Below are positions 9,077 to 22,580 of a DNA stretch of 44,115 nucleotides, piece after piece. A program made the position numbers and the translations under genes. The notes beneath the pieces are model-generated. The model worked only from the letters and a program-made list of their open reading frames with translations. It searched no databases and had not been told where the DNA came from. Each line of letters opens with the position of its first letter. Position 1 is the first letter of the stretch. Source of the DNA: Thermodesulfobacteriota bacterium (GTDB taxonomy: Bacteria; Desulfobacterota; Desulfobacteria; Desulfobacterales; UBA11574); assembly GCA_034658755.1 (NCBI GenBank), contig JAYEFV010000147.1, positions 1 through 44,115 on the forward strand. The letters run 5' to 3'.

Positions 9077-9165
9077 TAAGACACCTCCCCATCCATAGCA
9101 AACAATGCTATGGACCAGTACGTATTTTACGTAACACAAACACTTTGGATATAGGAGGTGTCTTA
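9077..9165 (+). promoter_or_regulatory. 12-bp perfect inverted repeat that can sequester the transposase SD and start codon
   Basis: TAAGACACCTCC (9077-9088) pairs with GGAGGTGTCTTA (9154-9165). An inner hairpin is CCATAGCA-aacaa-TGCTATGG (9093-9113). Confidence 0.55.
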
Positions 9166-10162
9166 TGAGAGCATACGCTGGAATCGATTTACATTCAAGC
9201 AATATTACATTGGCATTATGGATCAGGATTACAAAAGGCTATTTGGTCGGCGGCAACCAAACAATCTGAACGATGTTTTAAAGGTATTGGAACCATTCAA
9301 GGCTGATCTGGAAGGTGTTATCGTTGAATCCACCTACAACTGGTACTGGCTTGTGGATGGGTTGCAGGAACATGGCTATACGGTCCATCTGGCCAATCCG
9401 TCGGCGATAAAACATACGGATGACAGATGGGACTCTTTTTGGTTGGCGCACATGAAGCACTTAAACATTTTACCTGAAGGTTATATCTACCCAAAAGAAC
9501 AAAGATCTTTACGCGATTTACTGCGAAGAAGACTATTTTTTGTAAGACACAGAACAGCAAATATTTTAAGCCTGCAAAGTACAATTACCAGAAATCTTGG
9601 AATTAAGATTTCGGGTAACAACATCAAAAAGCTTAATATGGATGATGCTAATGAACTATTCGATTCATCGAACCTGGTATTCATGGCCCAAAATAATATC
9701 GCAACAATTAAGCATTTTGGGAAGATAATCAAGGGCATATAAAAAGAAATAAAATCCCAGGTTCAACTTCGCAAAGAGTTTGTAATGCTAACTACCATAC
9801 CTGGAATTGGAATAATCCTGGGTCTTACAATTATGCTTGAGGTAGGAGATATAGGTCGGTTTTCCAAAGTCGGCAATTACTCCTCCTACTGCCGTTGTGT
9901 CAGTAGTAAAAGGCTTTCAAATGGTAAGAAGAAAGGGGAAAACAACAAGAAGAACGGCAATAAGTATTTAGCCTGGGCCTATGTTGAAGCAGCTCACTTT
10001 GCCAAAAGGTACATTCCCAAGGCCCAAAGATTTTATCAGCAAAAAATGGCTAAAGCCAACGGCGCTGTTGCAACCAAGGCCCTTGCCAACAAGTTGGCCC
10101 GTGCTTCCTATTTTATCATGCGAGACCAAGTACCGTTTGATGAAGACATGCTTTTCAAATAA
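9165..10162 (+). pseudogene. IS110-family (DEDD) transposase with an N-terminal frameshift and an in-frame TAA
   Basis: ATG 9165 gives MRAYAGIDLHSSN, then the frame shifts near 9201-9206 to YYIGIMDQDYKRLF...VIVESTYNWYW. TAA at 9740-9742 interrupts ...KGI*KEIKSQV...MLTTIPGIGIILG..., which stays in the same frame. Confidence 0.8.
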
Positions 10163-10325: not shown

Positions 10326-10707
10326 AAAAACAATTGAACACGGTATGGCACCGAAGATTTTCTGGGGTCCGATTCAGCCGTCGTAGCCATAGGCTACTAT
10401 GGCGAAGTCTGCATGGACCAGGGGCCGTGTTTTAAGTATTGTGCATAAAACACAATTGCCTTGAACCTGATGGGCCTCCGGCTCGTAGAGCCTACGCCTC
10501 GGAGAGTGACTGGTGCGGATCAATATATACTGACTGATAACCAATAAAAATGAAATAACGGGTGCGAGATAGGTGGTAAAACAATACCGTGCTGTGGGGA
10601 ACTAAGAGCCAAGCGAAAAAAAAGAGGTATTTTTTTCATGGGAGAGGTGTTTTTTCTCTTGACTTACCCTTTAATGGGTGACCTCTTACCTTTTATATGC
10701 CTATATT

Positions 10708-10744
10708 GGTTGAAAAATGGTGAAATAAACCACTTTTTTCAACC
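10708..10744. promoter_or_regulatory. Near-perfect 14-bp inverted repeat upstream of the MerR-like gene (candidate operator or leader hairpin)
   Basis: GGTTGAAAAATGGT...ACCACTTTTTTCAACC ends 10 nt before ATG 10755. A possible promoter is TTGACT (10669-10674), an 18-nt spacer, then TTATAT (10693-10698). Confidence 0.3.
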
Positions 10745-10754
10745 AAAGGTAAAA

Positions 10755-11249
10755 ATGAATAAGATTTATCCGACTAATCTAGTTCGAAAATTGACCGGGG
10801 TGACTCTTAACCAGTTAAAATATTGGGTGAGAATTAATCTTGTTTCTCCGGAAAGAGATGGCAAGTTTTCTTTCTATTCTTTTAAGGATATTGTTAAGTT
10901 ACGAGTATTGGTTTCATTGAGAAAGAAAGGATTAAGTCTTCAACAGGTAAGAAAAGGGATAAAAAATTTAACCATGATGTTACCAGATGAAGAGCCAATT
11001 ACTAGGCTGATCATCTATACCGATGGAATGGACATGATTGTTGTTGAAAAAGGGAAATATTTCAACGCAATAACAAGACAACAGTATATCCGATTTGACA
11101 CGGAACAGATTGGTGCTGAGATAATTAAGTTACAAAAAACGAATAGTACTTTTATAAAAGAAAAGGCTAATTTTGAAAATAAAAAAAGTGATACCTCTCC
11201 CATATATTTAAGCTATTGCAGGATGGATGAAAGAAAACAATTGCAATGA
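10755..11249 (+). CDS. MerR-family HTH transcriptional regulator with a ~90-aa C-terminal domain
   Basis: LVRKLTGVTLNQLKYWVRINLVSP...YSFKDIVKLRVLVSLRKKGLSLQQV is MerR-type. The start is set at MNKIYPT, whereas the ORF track begins at 10638. It has an ATGA overlap with the next gene. Confidence 0.7.
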   Translation: MNKIYPTNLVRKLTGVTLNQLKYWVRINLVSPERDGKFSFYSFKDIVKLRVLVSLRKKGLSLQQVRKGIKNLTMMLPDEEPITRLIIYTDGMDMIVVEKGKYFNAITRQQYIRFDTEQIGAEIIKLQKTNSTFIKEKANFENKKSDTSPIYLSYCRMDERKQLQ

Positions 11250-12151
11250 ATGTATTAAACACAGTTCGCAATGAATTAAATCAATTAGGTTATTATCTTA
11301 AGGGGTACCCGAATTTAAAGGATTTTGCAGAAATTCACAGAGGTATTGAGTGGAATATTTCGCTTATAGAAAATAGGAATATATTAATATCGTTTGACCC
11401 AAAGCCTGGATTCAGCAAAGGGCTGGACAAGGTTCCAGGAAAAATAGAGCCTTTCTATGCCAAAGAATTTGTATATCTAAATGTGGATGAACCTTACAGA
11501 ATAAAAAACGTACATTCACTTCCATGGAATAGGACGAAGGTAATTGCAAATAGACACATAATCAGCCGTGGGCCATGGCGGATTGTTGGTTTCCCGGATT
11601 CCAGCGGTTTGGTTTTTCATGAAAACTTTATTGGAATTTGGCCAAAAACGAATATGACAATTGAAGTGCTTTCAGCTCTTATTAACTCACCTTTGATCAA
11701 TGCAGTTCTTTATGTGCATGAAGGTAAGCGTTTTAATCGGATTTCTACACTGAAACAAATTCCTGTTTCATTTCCCGGAGCTATTGATACTGAAAGAATC
11801 ACTCAGCTCGTCAAGTACTATGGCAAACTCCGACCAGGATTTAAAAGAGGTTCCGCTACAACACCAATCATCCAAAAATGTATTCAGACACTTATGGAAA
11901 TCGACAGCTTGATTTTAAAAGCCTACGATCTCCCTCCGAGGCTTGAACGCAAGCTGCTGGAATGTTTTAGAGGGTATGCACGGGCTGTTCCATTTGATTT
12001 TCCTGAATATTACCCTGAAGACTTTAGACCTTGTATTCCTTTACACAAATATCTTGAGATGGATTTAAAGCAAGCCAGTGCGGGAGAACTGCTCAAAAGA
12101 ATCACGCCCTTTGATTCCGAAGATATGCATGATTTTTTTATGGACATTTAG
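11246..12151 (+). CDS. Orphan TaqI/Eco57I-type target-recognition-domain protein (no methyltransferase motifs)
   Basis: LKDFAEIHRGIEWN and ...FIGIWPKTNMTIEVLSALINSPLINAVLYV... match the TaqI-like C-terminal specificity domain. They parallel YALWAILNHFLASLWF in the 961-aa MTase. No motif I or motif IV is present. Confidence 0.55.
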   Translation: MNVLNTVRNELNQLGYYLKGYPNLKDFAEIHRGIEWNISLIENRNILISFDPKPGFSKGLDKVPGKIEPFYAKEFVYLNVDEPYRIKNVHSLPWNRTKVIANRHIISRGPWRIVGFPDSSGLVFHENFIGIWPKTNMTIEVLSALINSPLINAVLYVHEGKRFNRISTLKQIPVSFPGAIDTERITQLVKYYGKLRPGFKRGSATTPIIQKCIQTLMEIDSLILKAYDLPPRLERKLLECFRGYARAVPFDFPEYYPEDFRPCIPLHKYLEMDLKQASAGELLKRITPFDSEDMHDFFMDI

Positions 12152-12233
12152 GCAGGGCAATCCTGATGGACGGATACCTTATAACGAATAAAGAATTAAT
12201 GGCTGTGTTTCAGGTTTCAAAAGGAAAAGCGGG

Positions 12234-12959
12234 ATGCAGAAAAACAAAATTGGCAGAAACCAACCGTGCCCCTGCGGTAGTGGAAAAAAATTTAAAAAAT
12301 GTTGCTATGGTAAAATATCGGTGGATAAGTCTTCAAATATGCTTTTGCCACTTTTAAGCGAAATTAATTATGGATCGCCGCCTTTATTAAACGATTCTTT
12401 TTTTATATCGAATCGGGTGCATGAAATTTCTGCACCACGTTTGCTTTATTCCAATTTATTAAATCCCGAAGTAGAGCAAATTGCATCGAAGTTGACAAGC
12501 CAATTGATAGATCGTGGACAAAAAGAAGCTATTGACATTGAAAAGGCAGAAAATACTGATGAGCTTATTAATTTAATGCGCAAGGGGGTAGATGTTTTAA
12601 ATCATGAAATATTAAAAGAAAAGCTATTGCAAAAAAAAGAAACAACGGTTCCAATTATTCTAAATGAATTGAAGAAACCTCAAAGTTCTCAATTTGTTGA
12701 AATATCAATAATAATATTGTACTTCTCAGAGATAGATTGTTCGAATGAGATTTTAGAAATACTACAAAAAACAAACTTAAATGCGTATACGGTCTCATTG
12801 CTTTGCATTCTTTTAGGATTTTATGGTGTAGAAGAATATGTCGAAATATTATGGAAATATTACCATTATTTTAAAGATCGATATCCTAATGAGACATTTA
12901 GTGATGGCCCATTAATAAGTTTATCAGAGATATGGGAAAGAAAAAAGGAAAGTAGTTAG
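12234..12959 (+). CDS. SEC-C metal-binding-motif protein
   Basis: N-terminal NQPCPCGSGKKFKKCC. The remaining ~210 aa are helical and AT-rich-encoded, with no motif I recognise. Confidence 0.65.
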   Translation: MQKNKIGRNQPCPCGSGKKFKKCCYGKISVDKSSNMLLPLLSEINYGSPPLLNDSFFISNRVHEISAPRLLYSNLLNPEVEQIASKLTSQLIDRGQKEAIDIEKAENTDELINLMRKGVDVLNHEILKEKLLQKKETTVPIILNELKKPQSSQFVEISIIILYFSEIDCSNEILEILQKTNLNAYTVSLLCILLGFYGVEEYVEILWKYYHYFKDRYPNETFSDGPLISLSEIWERKKESS

Positions 12960-13011
12960 AGATGATGGCAGACGTTTACACTTTGGGAATTGATCGGAAA
13001 AGGTGAATCGG

Positions 13012-13146
13012 ATGACACGCAAGAAAAAAACCGGTAAAAAACCGATTGAGCAGCATGATCACAAGGGCAAAAATCGGGGCAATAATCCGCCGGTTGGTCT
13101 GGTGACTCCAGATACCGACAAAAAGATGTTTGGTGTTGTTTCTTGA
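13012..13146 (+). pseudogene. 44-aa N-terminal stub of a second type III-like Mod methyltransferase
   Basis: MTRKKKTGKKPIEQHDHKGKNRGNNPPVGLVTPDTDKK parallels the N-terminus of the intact Mod, MAKKKKSTRVQDYRHDKKRKNNPPIGMVSYEPK. The frame ends inside the hairpin at 13132. Confidence 0.5.
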
Positions 13147-13195
13147 ATTGTAAATATCATCACCTAGTCACTATTCAAGACGCGATACCATTTTT
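13132..13195 (+). terminator. Hairpin plus T-run element (homologue at 24722-24768)
   Basis: The 17-nt arms GGTGTTGTTTCTTGAAT and ATTCAAGACGCGATACC pair with G-U wobbles on the + strand RNA only. TTTTT follows at 13191-13195. Confidence 0.5.
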
Positions 13196-13254
13196 CTACA
13201 ATCAAATCTAAAATACATAGAAAACCATGCTTTTCAAAAAGAGAGGCACATCCC

Positions 13255-16140
13255 ATGCAAGAATTACCAGAAAATAAAACTGGGCATGAAAAGTCGATTA
13301 GTGATTCCATCCGAAATACAATAAGTTCGGCTTTTCAACAGGTTGGGTACTCCAAAAGAATGATTTTGCATGATGTAAGTTTTGTTGGGGAGGGTGGAAA
13401 ACCTCACAAAGCAGATATGGTGGCCTATTCGAGTTCCCTGCGTCAAGATGCAGACACGGCTGTAATATCTGTAAAAGGGTCTGAAAACACGGAAAAAATT
13501 CAATTTGATGCGGATATTTCCCCATTCCGTGCATTGGCGACTCCAATTATCGTACTTGCAGAATACAGAGCTATTCATGGTGTGGCAGAACCCAGAGTGA
13601 GAACCGTAGGTCTGTGTAAAGATGCAGCTACATTTAAAAAGGAAAAAGCAGAAAGCAATATTATTCCCCTTTCCAGATTTGAAGAATACCTTAGAAATAA
13701 TCAACAATTTTTCACGCCACGTCGTTTAGAGGAGGCAAAGTTGGTTCCCGTTCCCGAACAACTCACGTTGTTTGATATAGCTCCGCACCTCAATAAGCAA
13801 GCATTGCAAATCGCTGAGAAAGAACTTGTTGATCGATTTGAAAAAGGTGTCAGGGAAGTTATAAAATTCACAAGTGACGAATATAAGCAACGAGTTATAA
13901 ATGCAGCTATTTCAGTACTTGGTGCCCGAATCCTTCGCGACAGATTGAAGAAAAATTGGCCACTCCCTTCCGGCGCAATAGAATTCTTATCTTTTGCTAA
14001 GAAATTTTTACCTGGCTATTTTGATATATCCAAAAAAATTGCTGGAATGCTCGACCCTCTGCTTAATCGATTACCCTCTGCTTTTGATTTTTCCCAGGTA
14101 AGTCTGGATATGGTTGGAAAATTTTATGCTTCAGCTTTTGTTACAAAAGAACTCCGGGACAAATGGGGGATTCACTACACTAAATCTTTGTTAGCAAGAA
14201 CACTTTTGAGGCGGATGCCTATTGAAGAGCTTCCCCCTGACAAGCGTATTCTTGCGGATCCTACTTGTGGTTCAGGAAGCCTTTTAACAGCAGGCTACGA
14301 ACGACTCGCGAATGCTACTTATCTTAGAATCCCTCAGAATGAAAGGCATCAGCGACTTGTTGGCACCATTTTCGGCAATGACAGAGATCAATTTGCCGCC
14401 GAAATAACGCGCATGACTTTGATGCTGTTTCATCCGCCCCACAAGAATAATTGGAAAGTAACTCATTTTGACGCAGAAAAGGATAGCTTTGGACGTAGAT
14501 GGACAAAGGAAATTGAAGTGACACCAACTATCATCGTAGCAAATCCGCCCTTTGGAGGAAAAGGTGGAGGTGCATCTACCACAGTCAAACCAAGAACAAG
14601 ACACCAACCTGATAGATCTGCTTTAATATTAAATCACTGTTTGAATATTCTTCCTGAAAACGGTTTGTTAGGTATTATTCTTACCGAAACAGTATTAGAT
14701 CAGCAGTTATTGAAAACAACCAGACATCGGGTTTTAAAGGAATGCCAAATCATAGAACAGTGGGATATTCCGGTGGGATGGTTTGATAATGTAAATCGTC
14801 CTGCCATGGCGTGGATCTTACGCAAGACCGCTCCATCGTCCAAAACGGTTTATATCCGTTCTCTTTCTGATGTACCATCCTTAGGAAGGGAGGCGAAATT
14901 ACATGGGACTATCCAAATTGATTTTGCCAATCCGCCTGAACACCTTGTTCCAACAGTTTTTGATGATATTTTGTCTAAAATGGAAATGAGTCCAAATTGC
15001 ATCAAGGATTATTACAGTGTGATGAATGGACTTCAACCGCTAAAAGGAAAGGTTACGACGGAAAAATCTGAGAAGGCTCATTCATGGAGCGGCAATGCTA
15101 TAGGTACTGATCCCTATACAGATTGCAGTAATGGTAATAAAGGCTGGTTGGAATTAATTAATGAAAATTTTGACGAAAGGAGCCAAAGGTTAGATTTGCG
15201 AAAACATCTGGATCAAAATGCACCTATGGTCATGCTTAGGGCAAATCGAAAAGCTCCCTGGAAATATAAATGGAGCTCAATGGCACTGATCAATATACCA
15301 GATAATTCCCGAAAAGTAGTGGCACCCTCAGCAAGTTATCATGTGACATTTTCTAAAAGCAATAATGATATTGATAAAACGAATAATGTCTATGCATTAT
15401 GGGCTATTTTGAACCATTTTCTTGCCAGCCTATGGTTTCATGAACGCCAGAGGGTTCAGACAATTCCTACCAAAAATTACAGGGATTTCCCATTGCCGAA
15501 AGTTTGGAACATAAAGAATATCAAGTTATTAGCTTCAACCGCAAAAGAACTCATTGACACAAAAAGAACAATCTATTCAAAACCGATACTTGACCCTCAA
15601 GATAGTCCAAAAATCAAGGAAATGGTGAAGAAAATTGATGATATTATCTATCAGATGTATGAAATCAAACAAGGAGAAAGACGACGGATCGAAGCCTTGT
15701 TTGGCGAAGAACAGCGTCCTTTACTTGTAGACATTGAGCAAACAAAAAAAGCTGCCCCAAAATCAAATATTGGTTCCGGTATCATTTATGACGAACCGGA
15801 ATGGGAAACCACTTGCGAAACCTTAGAACTCCACTTTGAAAAAAACCGTATAAGGCTCACTATTGACGGATTGACAGATTGTTCTGAAGATCTCGGATCT
15901 GCCGAAGATGGGATCTGGCTGAAAATAATTCCTGCCATGCCGGGATGGCTGTTGGAGAATGGGGCTGTGGGCTGGGTTGACATTACTACGGATAGCGCCA
16001 AAAAATTAAAACGATCCCCTGAAAAATACGTCCTTGGATTTCGCCTTCACAAGAACGCCTACAAGACACAAGATGAGATTGACAAATGTTTGCTCCTTGC
16101 CTCTAATGCGGAAATGAAAAAGGCGGAGGCAAATGGGTAA
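13255..16140 (+). CDS. Type IIG/IIL-like gamma-class N6-adenine DNA methyltransferase with N-terminal nuclease-like domain, TaqI-type TRD and an unassigned C-terminal domain
   Basis: Motif I is ILADPTCGSGSLL (~14255-14280) and motif IV is IVANPPFGG (14542-14553). The TRD reads ...VYALWAILNHFLASLWF. The product is 961 aa. An AGAGAGG SD precedes the ATG. Confidence 0.85.
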   Translation: MQELPENKTGHEKSISDSIRNTISSAFQQVGYSKRMILHDVSFVGEGGKPHKADMVAYSSSLRQDADTAVISVKGSENTEKIQFDADISPFRALATPIIVLAEYRAIHGVAEPRVRTVGLCKDAATFKKEKAESNIIPLSRFEEYLRNNQQFFTPRRLEEAKLVPVPEQLTLFDIAPHLNKQALQIAEKELVDRFEKGVREVIKFTSDEYKQRVINAAISVLGARILRDRLKKNWPLPSGAIEFLSFAKKFLPGYFDISKKIAGMLDPLLNRLPSAFDFSQVSLDMVGKFYASAFVTKELRDKWGIHYTKSLLARTLLRRMPIEELPPDKRILADPTCGSGSLLTAGYERLANATYLRIPQNERHQRLVGTIFGNDRDQFAAEITRMTLMLFHPPHKNNWKVTHFDAEKDSFGRRWTKEIEVTPTIIVANPPFGGKGGGASTTVKPRTRHQPDRSALILNHCLNILPENGLLGIILTETVLDQQLLKTTRHRVLKECQIIEQWDIPVGWFDNVNRPAMAWILRKTAPSSKTVYIRSLSDVPSLGREAKLHGTIQIDFANPPEHLVPTVFDDILSKMEMSPNCIKDYYSVMNGLQPLKGKVTTEKSEKAHSWSGNAIGTDPYTDCSNGNKGWLELINENFDERSQRLDLRKHLDQNAPMVMLRANRKAPWKYKWSSMALINIPDNSRKVVAPSASYHVTFSKSNNDIDKTNNVYALWAILNHFLASLWFHERQRVQTIPTKNYRDFPLPKVWNIKNIKLLASTAKELIDTKRTIYSKPILDPQDSPKIKEMVKKIDDIIYQMYEIKQGERRRIEALFGEEQRPLLVDIEQTKKAAPKSNIGSGIIYDEPEWETTCETLELHFEKNRIRLTIDGLTDCSEDLGSAEDGIWLKIIPAMPGWLLENGAVGWVDITTDSAKKLKRSPEKYVLGFRLHKNAYKTQDEIDKCLLLASNAEMKKAEANG

Positions 16141-16951
16141 GATACAATATGATTATGAAGTCATATTTATCGATGTAGGTCAGGGAGATGCCACACTTAT
16201 ACATCAATTATCAAATATGCATTCTGTTTTAGTTGATGCAGGAATTGCAAAGCCGGTCTTAACCGCCCTTAGGCAGAGCGCTCAACTTAAAGCAATTTTC
16301 ATTACCCATTGGGATAAAGATCATATCGGCGGTATGTCAGCCGTTATTAACTGGTTATCGAATAAATATCAGAAAGCCGTCGATGTTTTCATAAATCTTC
16401 AAGATACGTCCACTAAGATTGCAAAAATATTAAGCAGAACACTTGATGAAGCATGTGAGAATGGAACAGTTGAGTTAAAACATGCATGTAACGATTCAAA
16501 GAATCCGATTGAAATAATCAATGGAAGTTTTTTGATATTATGGCCTCCTTATAGAAAAGTTATAAGGTATCCTGATAACAGAAATTTTGGTTCTTTAATT
16601 CTTCGCTTTGATGTTGGAGATTTCAGCTTAGTTCTCGGCGGTGATGCTGGTGGAGATGTTTGGCCTCTTGTTGACCAGACAGTACTTAAAGCAGATGTTT
16701 TCAGGTATCCCCATCATGGCGGAGAGCTTTTCACAGGCAAAAACAGTTGGTCGGCAGAGGATCTTATATCGAAAGTGAATCCAGACTGGATAGTGGTATC
16801 CGTGGGTGTAAACAATCCCCACGGCCATCCTTCTGAAGAATTTATTAATGCTCAATCACGGCATCCGAATATACAGGTTCTTTACACAACCGAAGGAAAT
16901 ATCAATTTGCAAATAAAAAGCGCCGTTGGAAATATAAGAGTGAGGCAATAA
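16133..16951 (+). CDS. Stand-alone ComEC/Rec2-type metallo-beta-lactamase-fold hydrolase
   Basis: Motifs are FIDVGQGDATLI, ITHWDKDHIGG (16306-16332), GGDAGGD and YPHHGG. It overlaps the upstream gene by 8 nt, and its stop directly abuts the mod ATG. Confidence 0.85.
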   Translation: MGKIQYDYEVIFIDVGQGDATLIHQLSNMHSVLVDAGIAKPVLTALRQSAQLKAIFITHWDKDHIGGMSAVINWLSNKYQKAVDVFINLQDTSTKIAKILSRTLDEACENGTVELKHACNDSKNPIEIINGSFLILWPPYRKVIRYPDNRNFGSLILRFDVGDFSLVLGGDAGGDVWPLVDQTVLKADVFRYPHHGGELFTGKNSWSAEDLISKVNPDWIVVSVGVNNPHGHPSEEFINAQSRHPNIQVLYTTEGNINLQIKSAVGNIRVRQ

Positions 16952-19660
16952 ATGGCAAAGAAAAAGAAAAGCACACGAGTCCAGGACTATCGCCATGACA
17001 AAAAACGGAAAAACAATCCCCCCATCGGGATGGTGAGTTATGAGCCAAAAATCTCTGAGCCTAAAATAAAACGCTATGGCTATGATCCGCATCTTTCGCC
17101 TCAACTGATCTGGGCTGGCAAGCCCGGGCTCAAAACGATTGAGGTTGAAGACCGGTCAGGTATAGAAGTGGACTCTGTTTCTCTCCATGTACACGAACGG
17201 GTCAGTGCGCAGGCCATTATTAAGTCTGTTCAGCGAGAAGATAAACAGATGAAACTCTTTGCAGATCCTCAATTGCCTCTCCATAAGGCGGTTCAGTTTT
17301 ATTTGCACGACGTTGACTGGGCAAATCGTTTGATTCTTGGGGACTCTCTTTTGGTGGCAAATTCCCTGATCGAACGTGAGATGATGGCCGGCAAGGTACA
17401 GATGATCTACATGGACCCGCCTTACGGGGTGAAATATGCCAGCAATTTTCAGGCCAGGATTGACCGGCGGGATGTAAAAGACAGCGACGAACATCTCACC
17501 CGGGAGCCCGAAATGATCAAGGCCTACCGGGACACCTGGAAACTGGGGATTCATTCCTACCTCACTTATATGCGTGATCGTTTGAGGGTATGCAGGGATC
17601 TGCTTGTAGAATCCGGATCAATATTTGTGCAGATTAATGATGAGAATCTGCACTTGGTCAGGACTATTATGGATGAGGTATTCGGGGGTTCCAATTTTAT
17701 ATCTCTCATAACATTTACTAAAACTACTGGCTTTGCTTCTGAACTTTTAGATTCGATTGCAGATTATATCCTATGGTACAGCAAAGATAAAAAACAGGTG
17801 AAGTTTCGACAGCTTTTCCAACCGAAAACAATGGGCCTGGAGGGAGCAAAGCACTATGATTTTATTGAATTACCGGATGGAACTCGCAGAAGACTTATTT
17901 TAGAGGAAAAAATTGATCTCACCTTGCTACCATCTGAAGTCAAATTCTTTTCCTCTGACCAATTAACATCGCAGGGTGAAACGCCAAGTGGTTCAGTTCC
18001 GGTTAAGTATGAAGACCGTATTTTTAATTGCCCTACTGGGCTTCATTGGAAAACAACACCAGAGGGAATTAGGAGACTTGGTGAGCAAAGAAGGTTATTG
18101 GTGCAAGGCAACATGCCTCGATACGCGAGATTCCTCGATGATTTTCCTGTTATCCCTATTAATAATGTTTGGGGAATGTTTCAACTCGCAGAAAAAACTT
18201 ACGTAGTTCAAACAGCACCTGGTGCAGTTCAACGCTGCATTCTCATGACTACCGATCCGGGCGATCTGGTTTTTGATCCAACTTGCGGGTCTGGTACGAC
18301 AGGCTTTGTGGCCGAGCAATGGGGCCGGCGCTGGATTACATGTGATACCAGTCGGGTTGCACTGGCTCTGGCGCGACAAAGGCTTCTCACCGCCACTTTT
18401 CCCTATTATAAGATTGATGATGAAGTCAACGGACAAAATCCCGGTTACGGTTTTAACTATAAAACAGTTCCGCATATTACATTAAAATCCATTGCACAAA
18501 ATACACGCATTGATCCTCTGGCTGAAAAATACAATCCTCTTATTACTGATGCTCTAAAGCAATTTAATCAATCTGCAAACACCTCTTTTAAGGAGTGGGA
18601 GGTACCATTCGAACCTGATAAAAAGTGGTCAAAGAAAGCCAGGGAACATTTCAAAGAATTCCGCATGTTAAAGCAAAAAAAGCAGGCGGCAATTGATAAA
18701 ATAATTGCAGAGGATGCGCCACAGGAAATTCTTTATGATCAGCCTGAAATTGACCGAAAAATTGTCAGGGTTTCAGGTCCTTTCACTGTTGAAGCCATTC
18801 CTCCGCCCATATATGAAGTTGAATCGCCGATTGGTGGCGAACCTGAATCTATTGAAAGAGATGATGCCATCGAAGCCCGTCCTGGTGTTGAAAACCATAT
18901 CCCCACCCTTATCAATCTATTGCAAAAGGATGGGGTCACTTTCCCTGACAATAAAAAACTGACATTTGATGTCCTGACAACTCGAACAGGTGGGGTACTG
19001 CATGCAGAAGGGGAGGCAGAAGGCAAAAAAATTGCTATTTCATTCGGGCCGCTTCACGGTCCTGTCTCTTTAATGCAGGTGGAAGATGGATTGAGAGAAG
19101 CCTACATGGGAGGCTATGACGAAATCATCTTTTGCGGTTTTGCCTTTGATCCTGAAGCGCAGGCAGCAATAAATGCCAACGTTCATCCTAAAGTCAAAGC
19201 CCATGCCTCTCATATCCGGCCGGACGTTATCTTAAAGGATGCCGAAGGCGGTGATTTGTTAAAAACCACGGCTTCAAGTCAGCTATTTACCGTATTTGGC
19301 GAGCCGGATATAGACCTTGTTAAAAATAAGGGCGAGTTTACAATAAAGCTCCTTGGCGTGGATGTATATGATCCCATCTCCGGTGTTGTACACTCTGAAA
19401 ATGTGGGACGGGTGGCAGCATGGTTCGTGGACACCGACTATAACAAACGAACTTTTTGTATTGTCCAGGCGTTCTTTCCAAATAAAAGCGCCTGGAAAAA
19501 GTTAGAGCGGGCTTTGAAAGGTAAGCTTGATGAGGATCGTTTTGAAATGCTTACAGGTCATGTCTCTTTGCCGTTTCGTCCCGGAAATCATAAAAGGGCT
19601 GCTGTAAAAGTTCTTGATCAGCGCGGTAATGAAGTCATGAAGGTGGTGGATCTTGAATAA
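16952..19660 (+). CDS. mod: Type III-like restriction-modification methyltransferase (beta-class Mod)
   Basis: Motif IV MIYMDPPYG (17414-17425) lies upstream of motif I FDPTCGSGTTGFVAEQWGRRWITCD (18275-18301). The product is 902 aa. Confidence 0.9.
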   Translation: MAKKKKSTRVQDYRHDKKRKNNPPIGMVSYEPKISEPKIKRYGYDPHLSPQLIWAGKPGLKTIEVEDRSGIEVDSVSLHVHERVSAQAIIKSVQREDKQMKLFADPQLPLHKAVQFYLHDVDWANRLILGDSLLVANSLIEREMMAGKVQMIYMDPPYGVKYASNFQARIDRRDVKDSDEHLTREPEMIKAYRDTWKLGIHSYLTYMRDRLRVCRDLLVESGSIFVQINDENLHLVRTIMDEVFGGSNFISLITFTKTTGFASELLDSIADYILWYSKDKKQVKFRQLFQPKTMGLEGAKHYDFIELPDGTRRRLILEEKIDLTLLPSEVKFFSSDQLTSQGETPSGSVPVKYEDRIFNCPTGLHWKTTPEGIRRLGEQRRLLVQGNMPRYARFLDDFPVIPINNVWGMFQLAEKTYVVQTAPGAVQRCILMTTDPGDLVFDPTCGSGTTGFVAEQWGRRWITCDTSRVALALARQRLLTATFPYYKIDDEVNGQNPGYGFNYKTVPHITLKSIAQNTRIDPLAEKYNPLITDALKQFNQSANTSFKEWEVPFEPDKKWSKKAREHFKEFRMLKQKKQAAIDKIIAEDAPQEILYDQPEIDRKIVRVSGPFTVEAIPPPIYEVESPIGGEPESIERDDAIEARPGVENHIPTLINLLQKDGVTFPDNKKLTFDVLTTRTGGVLHAEGEAEGKKIAISFGPLHGPVSLMQVEDGLREAYMGGYDEIIFCGFAFDPEAQAAINANVHPKVKAHASHIRPDVILKDAEGGDLLKTTASSQLFTVFGEPDIDLVKNKGEFTIKLLGVDVYDPISGVVHSENVGRVAAWFVDTDYNKRTFCIVQAFFPNKSAWKKLERALKGKLDEDRFEMLTGHVSLPFRPGNHKRAAVKVLDQRGNEVMKVVDLE

Positions 19661-22580
19661 TCAGAATGATTTTAAAGGCTCCAGACACCTTGCCGTAGAT
19701 GAGCCCATCATCAACTCTCCATTTGAAGAGCCGAAACAATATTGGGTTTATGACGCTTTTACCGGCCAGCCTGCAAAAGTCCCGGGCCGCAGGCCTGCCC
19801 ATTACTATTTCCGCAGTCGAAGGCGGGCCGATGCCGCCCAAATCAGTCTTTTTGCTGATGAAGAAATGGTTGAACTCGAATCGGTCAACAAAATTCGTAA
19901 CCGGGTTAAAAAATGGCGGGAAGGCGGATATAAAAATGTTGGCCACATTACCAGACAGCTTCTCAGACACTGGACCTATCCTGATCGTGAAAAAAAACTT
20001 TTTTTCTGTCAGCTTGAAGCAGCAGAGACCATCATCTGGCTGAACGAAATCCACAAGTCCGGCAGACACGGCCTAAAGATTCCTTATGATGAGCCTCTGG
20101 AAGAAGGCTTTCAGGACTTAAGGCGCCAGTGTCTTAAAATGGCTACGGGAAGCGGTAAGACCGTGGTTATGGCAATGATTATTGCATGGAGCGTCCTGAA
20201 CAAAGTCCACAACAGGCAGGCCAGATGGTGCTCTGATACGGTATTGTTGGTTTGTCCGAACCTTACCATCAAAGAGCGTTTGGGAGGTACACCAAAGGGA
20301 CAAAACGGCAGCACTGAACCTGAGAGGGCGCTTGTTGCCGGTGCCAAGGGCAATTATTATGATAAATTTGACCTTGTTCCCAGTTCCTTGAAAGAATATC
20401 TGGGACAGGCAAAACTCCTGATCACCAACTGGCATCAGTTTGCAGAGATAGATGATCGCAGGAAACGGAGCATTATCCAGCGTGGTGTGGAGAGCCCCTC
20501 GGCTTTTTGCAACCGTGTTTTGCGGGAACTGGGTAGCGCCAGGAATATTCTGGTCTTAAATGACGAAGCCCACCATGCCTACCGCCCGGCGCCTGTTGAT
20601 GAAAATAATAGAAAAAAAACAAAACTTACGGCCGAAGAAAAAAAGACCAGGGAAAAAGCCACAGTTTGGATTAGTGCTCTGGATAAAATCAACAAAGCAA
20701 GAGAGATCAATCTTGTCGTAGATCTTTCGGCTACACCTTTCTATATCCAGGGGAGCGGTTACCCTGAAGGCAGTCCATTTCCCTGGATTGTATCTGACTT
20801 TGGCCTTGTTGATTCCATCGAATGCGGCATTGTAAAGATACCGCAGGTTCCGGTTGATAGTAATTCAGGCCGGCCTATTCCAGAGTATTTTGCTCTATGG
20901 AAATGGATAAATGACAGGTTGCCTGCCAGAGAGAGGGCTACGGGCAGGCGTAAACCCAAGCCAGAGGCAATACTCCGTGAAGCTGATGGAGCTTTAAAGC
21001 AATTGGCCGGGCAATGGAAAGCAAAGTATGAAGAATTCAAGAGTATAAACCATCCTGTACCGCCCACGATGATTATTGTTTGCGACAATACGAATATTGC
21101 AGAGCTGCTACATGAATATGTCAGTGGTGAACGCTGGGAGAAGTATCAGGATGAAAAAGGAAAGAAAAGAAAGAGGAAAGTTTACGGAACAGGCGGAGTG
21201 CTTCCCGAGTTACTTTCAAACAATGAGAGGCTTGAAAATACAATCCGTATCGATAGCAAACTTCTAAATGAAGCAGAAGAACGGGATGACGGGCAGACCA
21301 AAGAGGATGCCGCTGAATCCTTGCGCAAAAAAATAAGCACTGTGGGAAAGGTTGGTGAGCCAGGTCAGGATATTCGTTGCATAGTTTCCGTCTCCATGCT
21401 TACCGAAGGCTGGGATGCACAGAATGTGACACAAATTTTAGGCCTTCGGGCCTTCCTTTCTCAACTATTGTGTGAACAGGTTATAGGTAGAGGCCTGAGA
21501 CGAACACAGTACGATGATTTTGCTGTTCCTGAATATGTTGATGTTTATGGAATTCCCTTTGAAGTTATCCCGGTAAAGAAAAAACCGGTTGGTCCAGCCC
21601 CTCCACCAACAAAAACGACCCTTATCCAGTCTCTTTCAGAAAGGGAGCATTTGAAGATTGAGTTTCCGAGGGTTGAAGGATTCGTTTATCAAATAAAAAG
21701 CAAAATCAGGGCTGATGTAGGAAATATTGAACCATTGAGTATTGATCCAAATATCGAGCCCACCGAAACGGTTGTGCGGGCGAGGGTCGGTTATCAAGTA
21801 GGCTCACCAGGATTAGTCGGTCCCGGTGAAAAAGTTACTCAAACTCGTGAGGCGTTTTATGAGAGTATTCGTCCCCAGCAAATTCATTATGAAATTTCAA
21901 GAAGAATAACTGCATCGCTATTGAATCAAGATGATTTTAAAATGCAGGCCAGACAAATGCTTTTTCCGCAGGTGTTACAAATTGTCAGACAGTATGCAAA
22001 GCCTTTATCTGAAGGGGGGCGTATTGAATATAATGCTATTGATTCTCGTGAGATAGGCCTTGAACGTTATGTGCAGATTATCGTTGAACGACTGTGTACA
22101 GCCATTCGACCGGATGAAGGAAGTGGTGAATCGCCACTGCTACCTCGTTTAGAACGATTCCGGCCCCGAGGGTCCACTCAGGAAGTTCTTTTCAGGACTT
22201 CGCGCCAGGCAAAACAAACAATCAAGAGCCATGTTTCCCATGTGGTTCTTGACACCAAAACATGGGAACGTTCAGTTGCTTTCCATTTGGAACAGAGTGA
22301 ACTGGTGGAATCATATGTTCGCAATGATCATCTGGATTTTACAATTGATTACGAATTCAATGGTTCTCAGCATTCTTATATGCCCGATTTTTTGGTCAGG
22401 CTGAAAAATGGAACAAACCTTATACTCGAAGTAAAAGGATTTGAAGACGAGCAGGCACGTGCGAAGCATGAAGCTGCAAAAAGGTGGTGTGACGCGGTCT
22501 CCGACTGGGGAGAGATGGAAAAATGGAAATTTGATGTATGCAGAGATCCTAAAAAGCTTAAAGGTCTACTGGGAAAATAG
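19653..22580 (+). CDS. res: Type III-like restriction enzyme Res subunit (SF2 helicase plus C-terminal PD-(D/E)xK nuclease)
   Basis: It has Walker A MATGSGKT (20139-20162), a DEAH box LNDEAHHAY (20562-20576) and helicase motif SMLTEGWDA. The C-terminal YMPDFLV...LILEVKG lies at 22383-22436. A TTG start is preceded by AAGGTGG. Confidence 0.9.
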   Translation: MNNQNDFKGSRHLAVDEPIINSPFEEPKQYWVYDAFTGQPAKVPGRRPAHYYFRSRRRADAAQISLFADEEMVELESVNKIRNRVKKWREGGYKNVGHITRQLLRHWTYPDREKKLFFCQLEAAETIIWLNEIHKSGRHGLKIPYDEPLEEGFQDLRRQCLKMATGSGKTVVMAMIIAWSVLNKVHNRQARWCSDTVLLVCPNLTIKERLGGTPKGQNGSTEPERALVAGAKGNYYDKFDLVPSSLKEYLGQAKLLITNWHQFAEIDDRRKRSIIQRGVESPSAFCNRVLRELGSARNILVLNDEAHHAYRPAPVDENNRKKTKLTAEEKKTREKATVWISALDKINKAREINLVVDLSATPFYIQGSGYPEGSPFPWIVSDFGLVDSIECGIVKIPQVPVDSNSGRPIPEYFALWKWINDRLPARERATGRRKPKPEAILREADGALKQLAGQWKAKYEEFKSINHPVPPTMIIVCDNTNIAELLHEYVSGERWEKYQDEKGKKRKRKVYGTGGVLPELLSNNERLENTIRIDSKLLNEAEERDDGQTKEDAAESLRKKISTVGKVGEPGQDIRCIVSVSMLTEGWDAQNVTQILGLRAFLSQLLCEQVIGRGLRRTQYDDFAVPEYVDVYGIPFEVIPVKKKPVGPAPPPTKTTLIQSLSEREHLKIEFPRVEGFVYQIKSKIRADVGNIEPLSIDPNIEPTETVVRARVGYQVGSPGLVGPGEKVTQTREAFYESIRPQQIHYEISRRITASLLNQDDFKMQARQMLFPQVLQIVRQYAKPLSEGGRIEYNAIDSREIGLERYVQIIVERLCTAIRPDEGSGESPLLPRLERFRPRGSTQEVLFRTSRQAKQTIKSHVSHVVLDTKTWERSVAFHLEQSELVESYVRNDHLDFTIDYEFNGSQHSYMPDFLVRLKNGTNLILEVKGFEDEQARAKHEAAKRWCDAVSDWGEMEKWKFDVCRDPKKLKGLLGK

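Follow-up and report, generated by a model that had tools for sequence, protein, structure and literature searches.

Apparent in-frame excision of the catalytic half of an MmeI-like methyltransferase leaves a target-recognition domain behind a MerR-family regulator

Introduction

A 44,115-nt stretch of DNA from a Desulfobacterales bacterium (contig JAYEFV010000147.1; the whole stretch is hereafter called the window) carries, directly behind a gene for a MerR-family regulator, a 301-aa open reading frame (ORF; 11246-12151, + strand) that encodes a DNA target-recognition domain (TRD) and no methyltransferase (MTase) domain. Here we analyze this copy of the locus, the window copy, in the context of its relatives. 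Alignments at the DNA level show that the 301-aa gene derives, by an internal deletion that kept the frame, from the gene for an ~850-aa MmeI/DrdV-like gamma-class N6-adenine methyltransferase. The best overall explanation, which we consider likely, is that the catalytic half of that enzyme was excised and that the remainder has been retained in a non-enzymatic role. What had looked like an orphan TRD under a regulator thus becomes a datable event, namely an excision that took the catalytic half out of a defence methyltransferase precisely and in frame.

Results

Origin of the 301-aa gene

To the left of the deletion, window positions 10679-11294 align with positions 317-931 of the full-length locus L016 (91%) and with 5785-6399 of L012 (86%). 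To its right, positions 11321-12180 align with L016 2578-3437 (76%), and 11314-12180 with L012 8039-8905 (80%). The net loss is 1,620 bp, i.e., 540 codons (17-556), in frame. The ancestral ~850-aa methyltransferase has left its own start and first 16 codons (11246-11293, +); the encoded residues, MNVLNTVRNELNQLGY, match the N-terminus of the full-length L016 protein exactly. The deletion joint lies at 11293-11294 (GGTTAT/TATCTT, i.e., Y16/Y17), where residue 16 is joined to YLKGYP. From residue 17 onward the product consists of a TaqI-type TRD, helices and a conserved C-terminal tail (11294-12151, +), which correspond to ancestral residues ~557-846. The deletion removed the N-terminal nuclease-like domain, the helical linker and the entire catalytic MTase domain, with its S-adenosylmethionine (AdoMet) site and NPPF motif.

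The 3′ end of the gene is also altered. The window ORF ends five codons early, at a TAG (12149-12151) where the relatives have GAG; the ancestral TGA is found at 12164-12166. Homology to the full-length loci extends beyond the TRD stop into the start of a VapC-like PIN gene; the ATG of PIN and the ancestral MTase stop overlap (TGATG). A second deletion has taken this PIN gene after ~9 codons: the remnant (12166-12192, +) reads MDGYL.ITN, versus MDGYLFDTN in full-length loci, and the sequence then diverges.

An earlier note on this DNA, made from its letters, had offered several readings of the gene. One was a 5′-truncated methyltransferase remnant that had acquired a new upstream gene. That it is a methyltransferase remnant holds, but the deletion is internal and in frame, the native start and 16 codons were kept, and the MerR gene is ancestral, as described below. 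A free-standing TRD by original design is refuted, since the homologues are the C-terminal parts of full-length methyltransferases and a clear scar is present, which is the outcome that the note itself had named as refuting its proposal.

The family context is consistent with this origin. A scan of 1.84 billion representative proteins yielded 664 representative homologues, with a typical length of 830-870 aa and the match at residues ~550-845. In nearly all of them, the 301-aa protein equals the C-terminal third of ~850-aa MmeI/DrdV-like gamma-class N6-adenine methyltransferases. Many representatives of ~300-340 aa are also found; these may be true short forms or calls at contig edges. The 301-aa protein aligns only to residues ~556-849 of the full-length relatives, in which motif I (LEPCAGHG) and NPPF lie upstream of the matched part. 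The 301-aa protein has no AdoMet motif or NPPF, as the earlier note had remarked, and gave no N6_Mtase or Eco57I match, because the DNA of the catalytic half is deleted. Judged from its sequence, the product is unable to methylate DNA.

The 301-aa protein has no match of its own in Pfam, NCBIfam or PADLOC; that is, even TaqI_C (PF12950) does not match it at E ≤ 0.01. Single-sequence and profile searches against PDB sequences likewise returned nothing significant. Its identification is possible only through family context and fold comparison. TaqI_C is matched by 13 of the 57 aligned TRD regions of the family (Pfam, best E 1.6e-7), and PF12950 annotation is already recorded on three distant homologues. 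The AlphaFold model of the 301-aa protein (pLDDT 90.6, pTM 0.87) gave Foldseek matches to M.BseCI (1.3e-8), CamA (7e-8), PglX/BrxX (2e-7), M.TaqI (7e-5) and MmeI (3e-4), with the model matching the DNA-recognition half of M.TaqI, CamA and M.BseCI. The assignment as a TaqI-type TRD, for which the earlier note had proposed structure prediction as a check, is therefore supported by the predicted fold and by the family. In the model, the TRD is followed by long helices (residues 182-227). The C-terminal tail, of ~60 residues, is strongly conserved and predicted to be extended.

The regulator and its promoter

The gene upstream (10755-11249, +) encodes a 164-aa protein whose residues 10-67 match Pfam MerR_1 (E 1.2e-11, 45 bits versus a cut-off of 21.6), i.e., a MerR-type winged helix-turn-helix is present. 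Beyond this domain, ~65 further residues are conserved among relatives (tblastn matches running from query residue 1 to 128-148). The final ~19 residues are a tail specific to the window, which results from a run of seven A at 11181-11187 (six in the two closest relatives). In L001 and in the same-genus genome G009, the MerR stop lies 35 nt upstream of the TRD start. The ATGA overlap between the merR stop and the start of the 301-aa ORF (11246-11249), which the earlier note had pointed out, is real, but it occurs only in the window because of the seventh A. Translational coupling as a conserved trait was therefore rejected, the A-run indel being peculiar to the window.

The promoter of the MerR operon (10678-10707, +) comprises a GTGACC −35 box, an 18-nt spacer and a TATATT −10 box, and is followed by an operator-like inverted repeat (10708-10744, +) with arms GGTTGAAAAA (10708-10717) and TTTTTCAACC (10735-10744). 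An ATG at 10638, considered as a start of merR, is spurious because this conserved promoter and operator occupy 10678-10744. The same layout is common to 19 related loci (L002, L003, L009-L029, L096): TTGACC, 18 nt, TAtATT, the first arm, ~15 variable nt, the second arm, ~10 nt and ATG. In these loci the arms are nearly invariant and the spacer between them is free to vary. The −35 box is TTGACC in all relatives; the window alone has GTGACC, because homology to all related operons starts at 10679, within the box, where the upstream IS110-related sequence ends. Fragments of an IS110-type transposase are found at 9158-10162 (+).

The classic MerR layout, in which the operator lies between −35 and −10 boxes separated by a 19-20-bp spacer, was not seen in the 19 loci; the spacer is 18 nt, and the inverted repeat sits 3′ of the −10 box, ending 10 nt before the merR ATG. 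The position of the operator and the length of the spacer suggest autorepression rather than classic MerR activation. Because the layout is common to 19 related MerR loci, the MerR gene, promoter and operator are ancestral parts of the full-length operon, and not newly acquired.

The parent cassette

In the nearest, Desulfobacterota-centred clade, the full-length gene is preceded by a MerR gene whose product is 67-94% identical to the window MerR. The genomic context was surveyed in 80 species-representative genomes and 80 metagenome contigs, and a PIN gene directly follows the full-length gene in 127 of the 136 full-length loci that could be assessed. The parent is thus a MerR-MTase-PIN cassette, of which the window holds an intact MerR gene, 16 codons plus the TRD of the MTase gene, and ~9 codons of PIN. 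The genome from which the window comes (96.9% complete) contains neither a second full-length copy nor a PIN homologue. The distribution among 60 relatives is patchy, with a full-length gene in two and a short one in one.

The AlphaFold model of a full-length member (pLDDT 87.8) aligned with CamA and M.BseCI over ~600 columns, and with MmeI and DrdV over ~800-960 columns. The parent is therefore an MmeI-like single-chain enzyme. In its N-terminal domain, no (D/E)xK triad is obvious among the invariant or nearly invariant columns, which is a weak inference. One such full-length gene lies at L012 6351-8888. With 664 representative clusters, the cassette is spread over many phyla, among them Desulfobacterota, Planctomycetota, Chloroflexota and Pseudomonadota (Alpha- and Betaproteobacteria). 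Copies also occur on Rhizobiaceae plasmids, where RefSeq labels the two genes just "N-6 DNA methylase" and "PIN domain-containing protein"; of two plasmid copies inspected, one adjoins a Shedu gene. The cassette has no system model or name in PADLOC or NCBIfam, and the DefensePredictor paper contains no MTase-PIN system matching it. Carriage by phages amounts to none in INPHARED and a single contig in IMG/VR.

Recurrence of TRD-only genes and loss of PIN

A comparison of junctions indicates at least three separate origins of TRD-only genes behind MerR. Besides the window type, a second form, short_B (L002, L009, L010, L019, L129, L131, L135 and L137), starts with MAKHV(R/G)NG in the pre-TRD linker. 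In a third, short_C (L159, P0045 and P0047), ~9 N-terminal residues are joined to RNPPLWEIW; here, L159 533-1103 aligns with L029 5243-5814, and L159 1108-2009 with L025 1265-2166. Two of these junctions, those of the window type and of short_C, were mapped at the DNA level; each preserves both the reading frame and the native start.

The fate of the two downstream segments differs sharply. All 12 short loci have an open TRD frame, and not one has an intact PIN, which 127 of 136 full-length loci retain (p = 2e-12 by locus in Fisher's test; p = 5e-6 counting five independent breakpoints). At least five different events have broken PIN among the short loci, leaving 9, ~14 or 43 codons, a gene without its 5′ part, or nothing. 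Within short_B, the 5′ junction is common and the PIN breakpoints differ; a TRD-only gene and PIN must therefore have coexisted for a time. As read from these gene contents, the pattern shows a mutual dependence of the catalytic half and PIN, because their losses are tightly coupled, and a TRD that depends on neither, because it persists.

A rival reading is that the TRD and its tail would restrain the PIN nuclease in the parent, and would have been kept after the loss of PIN so as to neutralise the PIN of incoming homologous cassettes. The overlap of the MTase stop with the PIN start, the near-constant pairing of the two genes (127/136) and the coexistence of TRD-only and PIN genes in short_B fit such an antidote, as does a highly conserved tail whose predicted extended form resembles many partner-binding segments. 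The cassette is moreover patchy among relatives and present on plasmids. The pointers to a putative TRD-PIN interaction are gene adjacency and coupled loss. Against the antidote, the cassette is nearly absent from phage collections, and the genome of the window has no PIN homologue. In the one locus where a TRD-only gene accompanies PIN without MerR, PIN looks degenerate at its C-terminus. We regard an orphan antidote as improbable.

In that locus, L004 (8001-9496, on a 510-kb contig), a 329-aa TRD-only gene overlaps PIN, and both MerR and the MTase part are absent. The conserved LVT.D segment is missing from its PIN, whose C-terminus is unrelated, so that this may be a decaying copy; we therefore set L004 aside as proof that TRD and PIN suffice. 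In two short_B loci (L131 1378-1950 and L137 2497-3070), 43 codons of PIN remain, and the frame continues into what looks, in translation, like the C-terminus of a type I hsdM product.

Selection on the remnant

The ratio of non-synonymous to synonymous substitution rates (dN/dS, or omega) is 0.15-0.22 for short forms versus 0.12-0.19 for full-length pairs, and is alike in the TRD core, helices and tail. Members of short_B, which are dS 0.5-1.0 apart, still show an omega of ~0.15-0.2. At highly conserved positions, the window copy has two deviations and full-length members have 0-4, i.e., there is no excess. The naive dN/dS is, however, qualified as proof of selection by the mosaic structure of these genes, and was replaced by a count in the clonal frame and by the contrast in integrity between TRD and PIN. 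In the clonal frame, where the window and L001 are mutually nearest, we counted 12 synonymous and 8 non-synonymous changes, versus 80% non-synonymous expected under neutrality (p = 1e-4). Because the junctions are recurrent, the TRD is intact while the adjacent PIN is broken, and the constraint equals that on full-length TRDs, there is good support from these comparisons for a remnant that is kept by selection rather than decaying. The suspicion in the earlier note that the gene might be more than junk is borne out to that extent.

Several observations nevertheless weigh against retention and against repeated origin. The TRD genes are mosaic: in sliding-window identity, the window at aa ~150-245 is nearer to the full-length L012 than to its sister L001, to which it is 95-100% identical at aa 17-135 and 257-301 and 78-83% identical at aa 150-245. 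The tails of short_B are also recombinant. Part of the low dN/dS may therefore be imported from functional full-length alleles. The window copy itself is blemished, with a premature TAG (−5 residues), a P175S substitution where the family hardly varies, a frameshift in the tail of MerR and the GTGACC −35 box. Short forms account for ~9% of the closest metagenome loci and for one of the 80 species-representative genomes. Lastly, one clade uniting the window type with short_B is not rejected in an approximately unbiased (AU) test (p = 0.14), so their separate origin rests on junction anatomy. A single origin of all short forms was considered as well; the tree does not reject it, but the junction anatomy differs.

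Mosaicism, the TAG, the MerR frameshift and rarity are all compatible with a dead remnant, i.e., a young, non-functional leftover of a decaying defence operon, in which the open frame and the low dN/dS reflect youth and recombinational overwriting. Deletion scars indeed abound, in the PIN stub and in the mod-res genes of the sister population. Such a leftover would nonetheless have to account for a TRD that is intact in all 12 short loci while at least five different events have disrupted the PIN only a few bases from it in every one; for three junction types, the two mapped at the DNA level being in frame with the native start; and for the clonal-frame count (p = 1e-4) and the omega of ~0.15-0.2 in short_B at dS 0.5-1.0. 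We therefore consider a dead remnant unlikely.

Neighbouring genes

The place formerly taken by PIN is now occupied by a gene for a 241-aa protein (12234-12959, +), in which the SEC-C motif reported earlier was confirmed by domain search (E 2.2e-9). The gene lies outside the ancestral operon and is, by this reading of the locus, an independent neighbour. Its family is widespread (~245-257 aa), with one homologue in an unrelated defence-island context. The order merR-TRD-SEC-C-MT961-MBL recurs only in one close sister population (L001, which is the same as L097-L101, L109/L110 and G009). The conserved merR-TRD-SEC-C triplet that the earlier note had proposed to look for was accordingly rejected, as it is confined to this population and a SEC-C homologue is also found beside unrelated genes. 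Homology between the window and the sister population spans exactly 10679-22580, and the flanks differ. Within it, the SEC-C gene (window 12234-12959 versus L001 1400-2125) shows a dS of 0.05, versus 0.17-0.40 for its neighbours, with a dN/dS of ~0.5. This suggests a recent exchange of the SEC-C segment, or a different history. The stretch is AT-richer than its surroundings, as had been noticed, with a G+C content of 0.369 and 0.338 across 11-13 kb versus ~0.40-0.42 in the flanks.

Further downstream is an independent module (13255-16951, +), which consists of a 961-aa MmeI-like MTase, MT961, and a ComEC-type MBL protein. MT961 (13255-16140, +) was identified by domain search as an N6_Mtase/Eco57I-type enzyme and is distantly paralogous to the deleted gene, with 22-27% identity. 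The MBL gene is followed by a type III mod-res pair (+). In the sister population (window 17152-22441 versus L001/L097), an internal deletion has removed most of mod and res, leaving ORFs of 108 and 56 aa. Elsewhere, L105/L106 (MT955-MBL-mod-res) carry a 75%-identical copy of the module, again followed by a type III-like mod-res pair, so that the four-gene order recurs beyond the window; this copy is preceded by an HTH_3/Peptidase_M78 gene and a 146-164-aa protein of no assigned family.

The resemblance noted earlier between the 301-aa protein and the TRD segment of MT961 is weak but rightly placed (BLASTP E 0.004, 25% identity, MT961 residues 663-817). Another rival reading takes the 301-aa protein as a trans-acting or alternative specificity subunit, HsdS- or BcgI S-like, which would pair with the large MmeI-like MTase next door (961 aa here, 1,085 aa in short_B). 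In two lineages, a large gamma-class MTase gene does come after the TRD-only gene. Half-HsdS proteins consist of a TRD and then long helices, and the helices at residues 182-227 recall them. Yet the 961-aa and 1,085-aa enzymes carry TRDs of their own, and MT961-MBL modules at 75% and 49% identity occur elsewhere with no MerR or TRD gene nearby. The other short_B and short_C loci have different neighbours, e.g., the 3′ end of hsdM, and a TRD-less MTase partner that always co-occurs was found neither at MT961 nor among the short-form loci. Moreover, the TRD is just 25% identical to MT961, so recombinational TRD swapping is not possible. The proposal of a specificity subunit for MT961, which the earlier note had raised, is thereby weakened, and we hold such a subunit to be very improbable.

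Discussion

The deletion fused the native start and 16 residues of the parent to its TRD and C-terminal tail. In the mechanism that we propose, based on comparison of genes and genomes, the product would still be made from the MerR-controlled promoter through the parent gene's own start site. Most likely, this non-catalytic protein would still recognise the DNA target of the parent through its intact TRD, and would still use its conserved tail for partner binding. It would also act together with MerR, possibly as a DNA-bound regulator or blocker.

A broader proposal is that the TRDs of MmeI-like MTases have repeatedly been excised in frame from the MerR-MTase-PIN cassette and kept with MerR, as a self-contained two-gene unit whose TRD protein would read specific DNA sequences without catalysis and serve as a regulator, a site blocker or an antidote to incoming cassettes. 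We put this forward tentatively, as possible but doubtful. If true, it would constitute a previously unrecognised route from defence enzymes to non-enzymatic DNA-binding factors. The recurrence in several lineages, with PIN lost and the TRD kept each time, makes a selectable function of the lone TRD testable, and with it the workings of a widespread, unnamed cassette. It also calls for caution in annotation: where a defence island encodes a "hypothetical protein" of ~300 aa behind MerR, that protein can derive from a methyltransferase.

Comparison with known systems

MADS includes an HTH regulator and a methyltransferase, mad1 and mad2, to which PADLOC gave weak matches (MerR to mad1, 1.4e-4; the MTases to mad2). 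Membership was rejected as generic domain similarity: the NCBIfam MADS2 scores are 34 bits for MT961 and 27 bits for the parent, versus a cut-off of 720. The MADS detection model makes mad6-8 mandatory (10.1101/2023.03.30.534895). The genes of the MerR-TRD operon do not include mad3-8, for which no search was made across the window.

The closest similarities are to enzymes that combine catalysis and recognition. With M.TaqI, M.BseCI and CamA, i.e., gamma-class N6-adenine MTases with TaqI_C (PF12950), the 301-aa protein shares the fold of the C-terminal DNA-recognition half; unlike them, it is without any catalytic domain and has an extra conserved C-terminal tail of ~60 residues. With MmeI and DrdV, which are type IIL/IIG single-chain restriction-modification enzymes, the parent shares the order of N-terminal domain, helical linker, gamma-MTase and TRD. 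The parent differs from them in that no (D/E)xK triad is obvious among the conserved columns of its N-terminal domain, a weak indication, and in that a separate, translationally coupled PIN gene lies downstream; the window copy retains the TRD only.

Two further comparisons concern the organisation of the genes. HsdS of type I systems, truncated half-HsdS proteins and BcgI subunit B are dedicated specificity subunits, whose partner enzymes have no TRD. As in those systems, a TRD with helices is here a separate polypeptide beside a methyltransferase gene. Unlike HsdS and BcgI B, however, the window protein arose by deletion, and the enzymes next to it, which carry TRDs themselves, are also found in its absence. 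In PrrC-EcoprrI and VapBC, a latent RNase is held by a DNA-modification enzyme or by an antitoxin. The parent operon, known here from its genes, would follow a similar logic by coupling a VapC-like PIN to an MTase under a small autoregulator. In the window, unlike in those systems, PIN is gone, and only the possible antidote half would remain.

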